A DNA stretch of 64,000 nucleotides, taken from positions 32,001-96,000 of IMG/VR virus record IMGVR_UViG_3300050156_000143, one strand, 5' to 3'. Position numbers and translations under genes: made by a program. Under the pieces are notes generated by a model that worked only from the letters and a program-made list of their open reading frames with translations, searched no databases and was not told the origin of the DNA. This document shows, piece by piece, positions 26,034 through 47,370 of the stretch; the first letter of the stretch is position 1; each line of letters begins with the position of its first letter. This DNA is from a virus (taxonomy: Duplodnaviria; Caudoviricetes).

Positions 26034-26094
26034 GTTGTCTGCGTCAGTGCAGTGAATGCAGTGTACAACAATATTCCCAACATTGTCAAAACCC
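26034..26094 (-). promoter_or_regulatory. Sigma70-like early promoter plus conserved leader (37 bp identical to 43626-43662)
   Basis: TTGACA-N18-TACACT then GCATTCACTGCACTGACGCAGACAAC. Confidence 0.75.
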
Positions 26095-43662: not shown

Positions 43663-43717
43663 TAGTCGCCAACACGGTGAGATACCCATGCGATTCAGTC
43701 GGACAATAAATAATACA

Positions 43718-44806
43718 ATGAAAATGATCCCAGAAGCTCGACGCAACCCTGACGTCAACATCAAAGACAACTATGGCCACCAAAGTGCGCTAACGCTGCT
43801 AGAAACGATTCCAAAAGCCGACTTAAAAAACTATGGTGTCACAATGACTCAAGAGCCAAAAGTGGGCATCAACCCCAAGTCAGGACATCATTCCACCCCA
43901 ATTGGAATTTATTTTTACCCAGCGGCGTATTACTTGAAGATCATCAAATCCAGGCAAGATTTGCCATATGTCCACGATGCACCATATATCAATGTACTGA
44001 AATTATCAGGGACAATTATCCGGTTATCTAGAATGACACCAACTACGTATACCACGTTGAATAAACGGTTATCTGACTTTGCAGATAAACTTGGACTTCA
44101 ATATAACGAACAATCTGATATCAAACTGTTGGGAGAAAGGTTGTATGACAGTATTAACCAACTTGCTAGGTCACCAAAACATCGAGTAATGAACAGAAAA
44201 ACTAAAGCACCACGAGTGCCAGTCATGTTGAACTACATTTTGCGCAACATTGGGATTGATGTGTTGATTGATGAGCAAGGACATGGAATCATTCATGAAA
44301 ACGAGCCGTCCCAAGGGGTCGCAATTGATCCAACAGCTATTGAAGTTATTGCCAGATACGAAAACAAAAACCAAGAAAAACTTGACTCCCGCGTGATAGC
44401 CACCTTGCGGGCCATGTTTTCAACAACGTCGTTGCCATCGTTCATCGATATAGCAGTATCAGATTTCACCTCGGTTGATGTCAAATCTATTCAAAATAAC
44501 CCAGAAATACAAACCAAAATCGCAAAAAGATTGTTAAAACTTGTCCAACAAGATTCTCAGCAACTTTTACAGCCAGGGTGTGCGGAATTGGCATTTTTAC
44601 TGAGTGATAAGAATTGGTTACTTGCATATGCCCACCAGGGGGTTAACTACAAAGAACTCACAACATCAAAACACCAGATAGGCAAAATCGCATCATCGGT
44701 TTTATCGGCACACATCACCAACCCAGATGACGACAGTGACCCAGTCAATGAGTTAATCGACGCACTTAGTCGGGTCGGTTATTACTGCAAACCGTTCCGC
44801 ATTTAA
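43718..44806 (+). CDS. Late hypothetical protein, probable virion internal protein
   Basis: TAAATA 5 nt before ATG; MKMIPEAR start; TPIGIYFYP. Confidence 0.7.
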   Translation: MKMIPEARRNPDVNIKDNYGHQSALTLLETIPKADLKNYGVTMTQEPKVGINPKSGHHSTPIGIYFYPAAYYLKIIKSRQDLPYVHDAPYINVLKLSGTIIRLSRMTPTTYTTLNKRLSDFADKLGLQYNEQSDIKLLGERLYDSINQLARSPKHRVMNRKTKAPRVPVMLNYILRNIGIDVLIDEQGHGIIHENEPSQGVAIDPTAIEVIARYENKNQEKLDSRVIATLRAMFSTTSLPSFIDIAVSDFTSVDVKSIQNNPEIQTKIAKRLLKLVQQDSQQLLQPGCAELAFLLSDKNWLLAYAHQGVNYKELTTSKHQIGKIASSVLSAHITNPDDDSDPVNELIDALSRVGYYCKPFRI

Positions 44807-45437
44807 CCCGACACATGCACCAAAATGGTGCATCGCGGAACCCCGGTCACTGTCTCTTACACGACACGCATTTTCTTTGTAAAATTTCAACTTTTGTCAA
44901 CCGGTTTTACAAAACTTTACATGCGGGTGTCTGTATTTTTTCAAAAAATTTTTGTCATCATTGTGCAAATTCATGAGCCGATTTCCAGGTCGTTGGGTGA
45001 ATTTTGGAACTGATGAGGGACATTGTCTTCGCTATGATTTTTTCCCGGTTTCTTAAAAAACTTCCTTTTCCTGATTTGTTTTTGGTGAAGCGAACTCGTG
45101 AGCGTAGCGATCGAGGGCGATTTGCCAAAAACTGGGCGAGCGACTTGTTCGCTTGACCGATAACCTATAAATTTCATAGGTGTTTTTTTGCCTTTAATTT
45201 CACCGGGAAAAATTTTGGGAAATACATCTATCACTCGTATCACTCGTTTTTTGGCCGTTTCTGGAAAAATTTCATTCAAAATGAAGAAATCGACAGAAAA
45301 CACCAGAAAAAAAGTGGACGCACTTATGGCCTATTCGGAATTCAATCGGCACACCAAGGTTCCCAACAAAATGTTAAACACTATTGAATTCATTGATAGA
45401 AACAATGAAAACATCCAAATGCAAGCATTTGTCTGAG
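44807..45437. other. A/T-run-rich intergenic region, possible replication origin
   Basis: No convincing ORF; homopolymer runs, tandem tatcactcg x2 (45229-45246). Confidence 0.35.
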
Positions 45438-46020
45438 AAATTTGTGAACATTCACTGCACTACGTTTCGTTCATTTATCACAAATTTCAAATTTATAATA
45501 TTAAAATTTATAAGGAAGAAAGTACAGACGTAAGACGGCACTCACGCCTTTCTCGTAAGCGGGAGCCTTGATAGGCCCGGTTAGTGCTTCTATTGCGTCT
45601 CGGTTTTGTCGATCAGACAATCTGTGTGTGTTTCTACGCATCGTTGAACTTGGAATCCACCAAGGTAACATATGATTCAATATGTTCCGACTTGCCCTCA
45701 CAGCCCGCGCGGTGTCCCGCTTGACGTTTTCTCTCCTTCGCCACAACCTTAAACGATCCTACCAATTTCTAGTTATTTTGTATTCATCGCGCCAATAATC
45801 CCATCGAACTACTGCAAACAAAATAACTTTACTTTCGATCTCTACATAACCTCACGATTATGTACGCCCATTACCTAGGGGAGGACAGATATTGCCCCGG
45901 CTAAACATTGATAGTATTGTTTTTCATATTGAAACAACCTGATATCTCCGTTTACGAATCCTAATTGATTCACAGCGGCCAATGACTTAATCTACAGAGA
46001 GGGGTGAGTGATGCCCCGAA
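45438..46020 (-). ncRNA. Candidate large structured non-coding RNA
   Basis: TAAATA at 46025-46030 with no following ORF; many short hairpins; 8-bp long-range helix 45557-45564/45715-45722. Confidence 0.5.
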
Positions 46021-46062
46021 CTTGTATTTAACCATCTTTTTCAGATTGTGTCAAACGTTTTT

Positions 46063-47370
46063 TTACAAACTGTACAGCCCGTTCCGTAAAATCGATGCTA
46101 AGAGAATGTGTCCACTTTCGTTTGGGTGAAGCCCATCTGTGCTATATGCGGTGTTCCACTGATAATTGCTGTTTTGCGTCACATCGTTTCCCAAGAACAG
46201 TCCGATATTTCTCATGTTGATATATGTAGTAACGTCTGTTCCTGCTCGTGTGTCGAACATTTGGTTCAACAAATCGAGGGTGCCCCCGAGTCCACAGCCA
46301 GACTGTGGTGTTAGCCCGTCTGTTGATGTTCTGTTTAATACAGATGGTCGATGAATGACAATTGGGAGGCCACCTGGTGCTTGTCCCGCGACCCGCACAG
46401 TGTCCCATAATGTTTTGCTAGAAGAATACACTAAATCTGCTAAGGTCTGTCCACCGCTGAACCCGATATTGTTGATTCCGTACTCTTCGACATACGTGTT
46501 TGCATATTTGGCAATAGTAGACAATCTGGCTAATGCGGTGCCATCAATGTTCCAGGCGGTTGAAACTCCCCCACTGCATCCAGTGTTGCACCCAGCAATG
46601 GCAACATTCGTATTTAAATCCGTTTGGAACAACGCACGATCAAAATATGACCCGCCGCCGATATTTGGCCTAGAGGTTGAACCCACTCCCTCCACGATCG
46701 AATCACCGATTCCGAGCACCGATCGCTTATCTCCCCCCGCGAATGTCCCCACCACTCTGACACAATTCCACAGTACGGGCGAATTTGATACTGACCCAGA
46801 CCACGTAAACCCAGCGTCGCCAGTTGATAGATTAGTTACGAATCCCGCCGCTGGGTCGTATTCTAAACAGTATAATGTGCCGCTGCCCGATACCATACCC
46901 GGACAAGTTATCGTCTTCCCCCCTACACTCGCGGTTGTTTCCACGGTGACTACAATCCGAGTTCCCCTGGGGATCACTCCATCCGTTAACCCCAATTGAG
47001 ATGGGGTAATGACGTCAGACAATAATTCGATGTCGCCGGGGTTAACGGTTAGCGAGGCTGATCCCCCCCACGTTGCTAAAACTGATGGTTTTCCAACACA
47101 TTTAATCCACACACGGCGAGTTACTGGGTTCGATGCGTTAACTGTGCGATCAGTGCTGATGTACCATCCCTGGTCTACCAATCTGATTGTGGACAAATCA
47201 CCCGAACCCACTGTTCCGATAACTCTCGAAGCTCGCACATACCGAGACCCCCCAAGCGAGGCCTCGGATGATGGGATGATATTAGCCCCGGCCAGTGCAT
47301 AACGATAAGGCGACAGCGCAGTCCGCTTGTGGTGATAGTTCCACGACAAGTTAGTTGCACTCAATCTCAT
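46063..47370 (-). CDS. SGNH/GDSL hydrolase-domain late protein
   Basis: GIGDS, GCSGG, YGINN, DGLHPN blocks. Confidence 0.85.
   Translation of the reverse strand: MRLSATNLSWNYHHKRTALSPYRYALAGANIIPSSEASLGGSRYVRASRVIGTVGSGDLSTIRLVDQGWYISTDRTVNASNPVTRRVWIKCVGKPSVLATWGGSASLTVNPGDIELLSDVITPSQLGLTDGVIPRGTRIVVTVETTASVGGKTITCPGMVSGSGTLYCLEYDPAAGFVTNLSTGDAGFTWSGSVSNSPVLWNCVRVVGTFAGGDKRSVLGIGDSIVEGVGSTSRPNIGGGSYFDRALFQTDLNTNVAIAGCNTGCSGGVSTAWNIDGTALARLSTIAKYANTYVEEYGINNIGFSGGQTLADLVYSSSKTLWDTVRVAGQAPGGLPIVIHRPSVLNRTSTDGLTPQSGCGLGGTLDLLNQMFDTRAGTDVTTYINMRNIGLFLGNDVTQNSNYQWNTAYSTDGLHPNESGHILLASILRNGLYSL

Follow-up and report, generated by a model that had tools for sequence, protein, structure and literature searches.

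We examined a gene-free gap in a 64,000-nt window of viral DNA, which comprises bases 32,001–96,000 of a 277,516-bp IMG/VR virus record with direct terminal repeats (IMGVR_UViG_3300050156_000143). Positions below are those of the window unless genome positions are named. The gap spans 1.25 kb in a genome that is about 89% coding. It is bordered on one side by a GDSL/SGNH tail-fibre-like gene on the minus strand (46063–47370) and on the other by a plus-strand gene that ends at 44806 and probably starts at 43721, the site of a TAAATAA-N4-ATG. The record is that of a T4-like giant phage: it encodes a gp23-like protein of 525 amino acids (aa) with more than 600 IMG/VR relatives at about 60% identity, and Pfam Gp23 is present near a homologue of this protein. 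The stretch is present in DNA sequencing runs of metagenomes from leaf litter and fresh water. Within the gap, the minus-strand segment from 46020 to about 45516, here called c1, is probably a gene for a folded non-coding RNA (ncRNA) of about 480–505 nt, one of two old, diverged paralogues in this genome. All c1 features given below lie on the minus strand.

A first-pass annotation had proposed that a structured late ncRNA of about 600 nt lies here behind a TAAATA motif, in a stretch poor in open reading frames (ORFs). We found that the stretch is non-coding and, as described, ORF-poor; its largest sense ORF encodes only 81 aa. Conservation of this ORF as a protein had been named as the finding that would speak against an RNA. 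The ORF has zero homologues among 5.8 billion proteins and matches neither Pfam nor PHROGs, and its frame is interrupted by a stop in the paralogue, c2, which has no sense ORF of 50 aa or more. The seven further small ORFs tested belong to no Pfam or PHROG family. An ncRNA gene behind TAAATA thus remains the probable explanation, on the lack of a coding signal, the compensated core shared with the paralogue, a late-type promoter and contigs from RNA libraries.

A diverged paralogue and its core

The second copy, c2, lies on the plus strand at 183.2–184.3 kb of the same genome (locus 183,201–184,345; L002 1255–2399), and its RNA would run from genome position 183,235 to about 183,735. Its elements are ordered as promoter, an extra 9-bp hairpin, 5′ box, core, a 15-bp extended hairpin and 3′ box; a hairpin module, a terminator and a 354-nt repeat follow the 3′ box, and small co-directional genes lie downstream. 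Upstream of the 354-nt repeat, c1 and c2 align in five blocks only, namely the promoter, the 17-nt 5′ box (16 of 17 nt identical), a 69-nt island (77% identical), TTCCTTATAAAT and a terminator-like block (26 of 32 nt identical).

The first-pass annotation had recommended collecting homologues and testing for covariation, and c2 supplied such a comparison, albeit of two sequences. The conserved core occupies 45622–45703 of c1. From a gap-free 91-nt alignment of c1 and c2, RNAalifold recovered on its own the helices P1 (45703–45699/45626–45622), P1b (45691–45688/45643–45640), P2 (45686–45680/45673–45667) and P3 (45664–45660/45653–45649), of which P1b, P2 and P3 form a three-way junction (junctions of 1, 2 and 5 nt). 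All 21 core pairs are standard in both copies; six have changed on both sides and none is broken. In controls in which the 3′ partners were slid by 1–3 columns, 24–45% of cells were paired and zero or one double change was seen. Differences between the copies affect 12 of the 42 paired columns, all forming six complete pairs, and occur at a similar rate in unpaired columns (17 of 49). The chance of 12 changes falling in six intact pairs would be about 5 × 10^−6 if the pairing of the new letters is ignored, and the observed covariation value was reached in 11 of 500 shuffles. These results indicate that the core has been kept by compensatory changes between c1 and c2. One G·U pair in P1b is kept in both copies, where the other strand would have C·A, and the basal pair of the c2 5′ hairpin is G·U on the sense strand; these pairs favour the promoter-sense strand as the one that folds. 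A covariance model (R1) scored 110.5 bits on c1 and 114.3 bits on c2, with the next match at 13.6 bits, scores that are circular because the model was built from c1 and c2 themselves.

Further elements flank or belong to this domain. A tetraloop hairpin predicted in folds 5′ of the core (45709–45720, GCGG-GACA-CCGC) has a counterpart at the same place in c2 (GUCAC-GAAA-GUGAU), with the shape kept and the sequence not. P4 (45606–45620, UUGUC-UGAUC-GACAA), read by eye, corresponds to UGCAA-CUGAUAA-UUGCA in c2, with CUGAU in the loop common to both; it has no formal pair count because the copies differ in register. Nearly invariant are the unpaired parts L3 (UGGAUU), L2 (..AAUC) and the junction UUCAAC.AUGCG. 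L2 (..AAUC) and L3 (..GAUU) are complementary over 4 nt that are invariant in c1 and c2, and could kiss within one molecule or between molecules.

All eight stems listed in the first-pass annotation exist where it had placed them: gaatc/gattc (45971–45956), tacataa/ttatgta (45864–45843), gttattttg/caaaataac (45827–45772), aacatat/atatgtt (45686–45667), cttgg/ccaag (45664–45649), ttgtc/gacaa (45620–45606), aagcggga/tcccgctt (45722–45557) and aaatttgtga/tcacaaattt (45487–45438). Three of them (aacatat and cttgg, counted formally, and ttgtc, read by eye) recur in c2 with different letters, and the remaining five are specific to the c1 copy. We rejected the 8-bp aagcggga/tcccgctt helix as an RNA element, as it has no c2 counterpart and competes with the conserved tetraloop hairpin. 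The terminal aaatttgtga stem, which had been counted as part of the RNA, belongs to a separate downstream module that is shared with a third locus, c3. The many stems are thus real, but their density is only weakly above that of shuffled sequence: c1 has 14 perfect 7-mer stems compared with 6.8 ± 3.4 in shuffles, and 19 of 500 shuffles reach 14, so that stem density alone proves nothing. Minimum free energy z-scores for c1 were −0.61 over 717 nt (46021–45305), −0.74 when only the 5′ 397 nt were folded and −0.59 on the antisense strand; the whole fold of c2 beats shuffles (z = −4.05). The data do not bear out an RNA that is ornate overall: the supported part of the fold amounts to about 120 nt, and c1 is thermodynamically not unusual.

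Promoter, ends and expression

The c1 promoter (46024–46054) consists of TTGACA (46054–46049), a 17-nt spacer and TTAAATAC (46031–46024), which includes TAAATA (46030–46025). As the first-pass annotation had noticed, this TAAATA has no start codon at the usual spacing; it is followed by aag-TTCGGGG, with no ATG. The c2 promoter is laid out alike (TTGAAA-N17-TTAAATAC), and only these two, unlike the other TAAATA[AC] sites, have TTGACA or TTGAAA exactly 17 nt upstream. TAAATA[AC] is the late-type promoter or initiator motif of this phage. Genome-wide, ATG lies 2–6 nt downstream at 26 of 52 TAAATA[AC] sites, compared with 4–16% for control heptamers; among words enriched ahead of ORFs, 8-mers of the CTAAATAC type rank first, and the gp23-like capsid gene has one site 20 nt before it. 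Examples of TAAATA[AC]-ATG sites are found at window 43707–43723 and at genome positions 123,703 and 234,090. The short distance to the ATG indicates that late mRNAs in this phage are leaderless or nearly leaderless. The motif resembles TATAAATA, the late promoter of T4, and CTAAATA, its variant in cyanomyoviruses. Because both copies also carry a sigma70-like −35 element (TTGACA or TTGAAA, N17), host sigma70 may read the promoter too. Late expression of the c1 RNA, as the earlier label had it, is plausible from the late-type motif but need not be exclusive.

We place the ends of the RNA at 46020 and 45516 by inference. The start, near 46020, follows from the spacing between TAAATAC-N3 and ATG at leaderless genes, and the 3′ end, near 45516, from a terminator-like hairpin plus a U-rich tract; the RNA should extend at least past the 3′ box (45539). 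A length of about 480–505 nt (46020 to 45539–45516) is more likely than the roughly 600 nt first proposed. The 5′ box forms a hairpin (46001–46017, GGGG-CAUCACUCA-CCCC), and the 3′ box, GUGAGUG (45539–45545), is complementary to CACUCAC (46010–46004) in the loop of that hairpin. In c2 the 5′ loop reads GACUCAC and the 3′ box GUGAGUC, so that, read by eye, the single difference in each box is compensated. This 7-bp pairing of the 5′ hairpin loop with the 3′ box would close the molecule. Counted from the presumed start, the 3′ box is reached after 482 nt in c1 and after 472 nt in c2, whereas the stretch between 5′ box and core measures 356 nt in c1 but 219 nt in c2; total spacing that is kept while internal distances differ by more than 100 nt suggests a fixed overall size with exchangeable arms. 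The terminator-like hairpin (45526–45549) has 9 pairs, two of them G·U on the minus strand, and is followed by GUACUUUCUU. Because the 3′ box overlaps this hairpin, the two pairings are mutually exclusive, and the overlap is either a switch or a coincidence. A 5-bp pairing of GCAUC in the 5′ box with GAUGC in the core tail was rejected, as its variable position does not covary in c2.

Contigs from RNA-type libraries cover 45693–46009. Metatranscriptomic RNA-Seq run X20 gave a 196-nt contig on 45814–46009, and run X12, which we guess to be RNA, gave a 265-nt contig on 45693–45954; the rest of 44300–46600 is uncovered in both runs, and outside 45693–46009 this is not evidence of absence. As a hint, the contigs are compatible with a transcript that starts close to 46020 and is abundant in its 5′ part. 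Three more runs of X12's source organism, from other studies, contain 6–10% of the stretch's words, and runs X14, X18 and X19 hold small shares of them.

Known families and other RNAs of this phage

The first-pass annotation could not assign the RNA to a class and had suggested a comparison with Rfam, in which c1 fits no family of Rfam 15. At the gathering score there were no matches in the 64-kb window; at E ≤ 10 over 44700–46200 the best match was a miRNA model, at 22.9 bits against a threshold of 63, and c2 gave nothing beyond noise at permissive thresholds. The families covered include GOLLD, ROOL, OLE, HEARO, raiA, 6S, RNase P, group I and II introns, ribozymes and riboswitches. ARAGORN found no tRNA or tmRNA gene in the window. 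GenBank phages gave no match by blastn or megablast. Pattern scans for core motifs in IMG/VR and JGI metagenomes, and a 30-mer of the 5′ part in GTDB genomes, returned chance matches in coding regions or none, and the P3-hairpin pattern in IMG/VR returned only chance matches in ORFs. R1 was also run against 10 large records of related phages, 96 loci from relatives and 3 loci close to homologues of the neighbouring gene; its only matches, all weak, fell inside long ORFs. Homologues of the GDSL tail-fibre-like neighbour and of the 361-aa neighbour occur in other contexts, without such a gap. Close variants (at least 98% identity) are present in several metagenomes; the closest contig, L225, adds no divergence, because it derives from the same phage lineage (approximately 99–100% identity).

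Two known kinds of RNA were tried and rejected. For an IS200/IS605 TnpB omega RNA, or an end-derived miniature inverted-repeat transposable element, alignments of c1 and c2 to the tnpB flanks were no better than shuffles; the intact 414-aa TnpB/Cas12f-like gene of this phage (PF07282, 59 bits; genome 201,477–202,721, L093 589–1833) is flanked by non-coding stretches of 584 and 414 nt. For a retron or diversity-generating retroelement ncRNA, or a Ro60-associated Y RNA, the 277-kb record, which CheckV estimates to be 77% complete, contains neither an RVT_1 nor a TROVE match.

GOLLD (Rfam RF01998) and ROOL (RF03087) are large ornate RNAs, often found on phages or prophages (PMC5737381; bioRxiv 10.1101/2024.12.08.627333). 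Like them, c1 appears to be a phage-borne, multi-helical ncRNA of several hundred nucleotides with its own promoter and with conserved loops that may allow RNA–RNA contacts. Unlike them, it has no Rfam match at E ≤ 10, is smaller (about 500 nt), is so far known from a single phage lineage, and has an ordinary folding energy with about 120 nt of supported structure. A different comparison is with the PeSL (promoter-early stem-loop) repeats of T4-type phages, reportedly described by Arbiol et al. in 2010. PeSLs are about 50–60 bp long and precede genes. As in a PeSL, the c1 promoter stands directly before a conserved stem-loop, is repeated in the genome and apparently recombines between loci; unlike in a PeSL, its promoter and hairpin are followed by about 480 nt of non-coding DNA that contain a conserved domain. 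We regard c1 and c2 as a new and, so far, lineage-restricted family among the large structured phage RNAs, belonging to no described family.

The same genome contains other large RNAs. A separate family is represented at genome 132,306–132,783, and at least 119 IMG/VR loci (L105–L223) contain the 20-mer TTGTACAGRTTGTGCTGTGC that is typical of it. In this family conserved blocks (UUGUACAGRUUGUGCUGUGC, CGAGAAGGC and ACUUUACAG), which by eye are absent from c1 and c2, alternate with variable arms. An nhmmer profile of 85 members matched this genome only at 132,306–132,783 (E ≤ 10), and c1 and c2 are therefore not members. The 132-kb RNA of this phage, which begins CGGGGCA, has at 132.5 kb a P3-type hairpin, CCUGG-UGGAUK-CCAGG, identical to that of c2 at 18 of 19 nt. 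This hairpin lies in a segment that is unconserved across the 132-kb family and looks like a phage-specific shared module, not a family trait; it could reflect a common protein-binding site or an exchange of modules. RNAs at 30.2–30.7 and 251.0–251.45 kb are clear homologues of each other, and by eye their shared blocks are absent from c1 and c2, with only the downstream module in common. The 132-kb and 30/251-kb RNAs resemble c1 and c2 in their similar size, orphan promoters and gene-free gaps in the same genome; the 132-kb family is present in at least 119 contigs, whereas c1 and c2 were found in none beyond this lineage.

Downstream modules and interpretation

Past the inferred 3′ end lies a downstream module (45438–45517) made up of TTCCTTATAAAT, an A/T-only tract and a 10-bp A/T-rich stem with a 30-nt loop (45487–45438). 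Parts of it are also found after c2 (genome 183,760–183,820) and at the third locus, c3 (genome 251.49–251.59 kb), which lies behind the 251.0–251.45-kb RNA. The components are a U-rich motif (GUACUUUnUUCUUAUAAAU), the A/T tract and the large hairpin, which in the window extend over 45438–45526. The module stems differ in sequence and measure 10, 12 and 11 bp in c1, c2 and c3, with loops of 26–32 nt, and the c2 and c3 loops share GAGCGCAGCGAAGCAAGCGA at 20 of 20 positions. Terminator, motif and hairpin are not arranged in one common order at c1, c2 and c3; we therefore count this module as a separate element, along with the second terminator-like block and the 354-nt repeat. The second terminator-like block (45307–45338), which is the block aligned with c2 above, ends in a T-run and forms a weak hairpin in c1. 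An origin-like role of the modules is a possibility. By eye, GAACGAAG-type hairpins and GTGATAAATGAAC also follow the 132-kb-family RNA in the distant relatives L103 and L104. The loop of the terminal hairpin (45449–45461, minus strand), AGUGCAGUGAAUG, perfectly complements the first 13 nt of an early leader (26046–26058) behind a TTGACA-N18-TACACT promoter; about two such 13-mer matches are expected by chance at this RNA size, and the complement is only suggestive.

The 354-nt repeat (44885–45238, minus strand) is 97.5% identical to genome 183,995–184,345, is inverted relative to that copy and lies 106 kb from it. Three 1-nt indels between the copies, and further indels in variants, indicate that it is non-coding. 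In the 2,878-nt contig L225, from another JGI sample, the left flank of c1 and the repeat (99.95% identity) are joined to the c2 RNA (99.1%); either recombination at the repeat has yielded an inversion isomer, or the contig is a chimera of the assembly. In a close relative in run X2, the sequence upstream of the c1 promoter departs from the end of the GDSL gene (window 46061; 255-nt loose end), which places the RNA locus at a recombination breakpoint.

If c1 encodes an RNA gene, its product would act in trans as a folded scaffold or decoy. The invariant core and loops (L3, L2 and the junction) may offer a surface to which a protein of the phage or host, or a further copy of the RNA, binds; the 5′ and 3′ ends would pair, and the long arms between conserved blocks, wholly different between the copies, would be structural filler. 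A protein-binding scaffold is our favoured guess for its role, and if the RNA is abundant in infected cells, at which the RNA-library contigs hint, it might act as a decoy or scaffold on proteins of the host or phage. A more far-reaching idea is that, among at least five structured RNAs of three families, c1 and c2 assemble with each other or with the 132-kb RNA while the 354-bp repeats flip a 106-kb segment. The L2/L3 complementarity and the shared P3 hairpin could then lead to a multi-RNA particle, a new machine of RNA only or of RNA and protein comparable to the ROOL and GOLLD cages, although we consider this a long shot. Few RNA classes are as poorly understood as the large structured RNAs of phages, GOLLD and ROOL for example, and with the two other families this phage would carry five large ncRNA genes in three families. 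The two copies also amount to a natural experiment, in which similarity is left only in the core, the 5′ hairpin and the 3′ box, and these parts offer themselves as targets for mutation or as baits.

Several observations weigh against an RNA gene with such a role. The folding energy of c1 is ordinary (z of −0.6 to −0.7), about 75% of the molecule is unalignable between c1 and c2, and the collections searched held no homologue outside this phage lineage. The covariation statistics are weak because there are only two independent sequences, and part of the structure was chosen after the sequences had been seen. One of the two overlapping pairings at the 3′ box and terminator-like hairpin may be spurious. 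The RNA-library contigs have a depth of 2–3 and carry no strand and no ends; the runs were picked for sharing words of the stretch, and DNA carry-over is possible. Pieces of the DNA around the RNA recur, shuffled, at three loci, as they would in a mosaic of cis elements, and a role as scaffold or decoy is a guess. As it rests on one lineage and two sequences, we regard the finding as promising, not established.

The cis-element explanation holds that the locus is a mosaic of intergenic modules (a promoter with a 5′ stem-loop, terminators, and hairpins for RNases or regulators) duplicated and shuffled by recombination, so that any transcript is a by-product, leader or trailer and does not act in trans. 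The piecewise sharing and reordering of blocks among c1, c2 and c3 would be expected of such a mosaic, as would the P3-like hairpin in a variable part of the unrelated 132.5-kb RNA, the co-directional genes after c2, the 2,878-nt contig in which the 354-nt repeat bridges the flank of c1 and the RNA of c2, and the ordinary folding energy of c1. We nevertheless consider it rather unlikely, because the core is no simple hairpin but a nested four-helix domain with six compensated pairs and conserved unpaired nucleotides, because the 5′ and 3′ boxes are complementary and keep a spacing of about 480 nt, and because c1 faces a convergent plus-strand gene, so that it could not be the leader of a gene behind it. 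The shared modules also raise the idea of a replication-origin pre-primer, in which a structured RNA enters the A/T-only tract and hairpin (45505–45438) and an R-loop primes DNA synthesis. T4 uses several transcript-primed origins, and c1 resembles ColE1 RNA II and the T4 oriF and oriG transcripts in having a promoter-driven, structured RNA of about 500 nt with an A/T-rich end and a hairpin; this likeness is an analogy of layout alone, as the RNA–DNA hybrid, RNase H processing and initiation belong to the known systems. At c1, c2 and c3 alike, and irrespective of the RNA involved, a promoter, a structured RNA of about 500 nt, an A/T-only tract and a large hairpin follow one another, in a phage that is T4-like by its gp23-like capsid protein, and if the RNA did prime replication, RNA II-type origins would extend to T4-like giant phages. 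An origin is nonetheless improbable, as the locus has no iterons or initiator-binding repeats and no change in skew, a terminator-like hairpin stands between the RNA and the A/T tract in c1, the 30-kb paralogue of the c3 RNA has by eye no obvious copy of the module, and origins are usually conserved among relatives, whereas the relatives searched contained nothing like c1 or c2.

A decayed or tiny coding gene (ORFs of 81, 43 and 35 aa) would account for the similarity of the island in another way, since in one frame the c1 and c2 island peptides (..SY.TLVDS[KR]FN[DN]A) are identical at 13 of 23 residues and two of the differences are synonymous. We judge this very improbable. The peptide similarity stops where the nucleotide identity stops, upstream residues change radically despite similar nucleotides, and a change from gtt to acc requires three base changes that exactly compensate the opposite arm of P2. 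Moreover, the c2 frame is open for only about 27–35 codons and has no ATG, there are no homologues or families, and by eye neither a Shine–Dalgarno sequence nor a TAAATA-ATG context is present. That the stretch is ordinary spacer with accidental stems agrees with z-scores near zero and is still scarcely credible, given a 1.25-kb gene-free gap that is unusual in an 89%-coding genome, a paralogue with conserved blocks and compensated pairs, and RNA-library contigs on the 5′ part. An RNA gene with a diverged paralogue therefore remains the reading that we prefer.

Elsewhere in this genome, a stretch of 710 nt at 84,122–84,831 is without long ORFs, and a 924-nt gap contains, at genome 173,390–173,670, sequences that resemble several tRNA genes, with GGTTCGAGTCC and GGTTCGATTCC T-arms.

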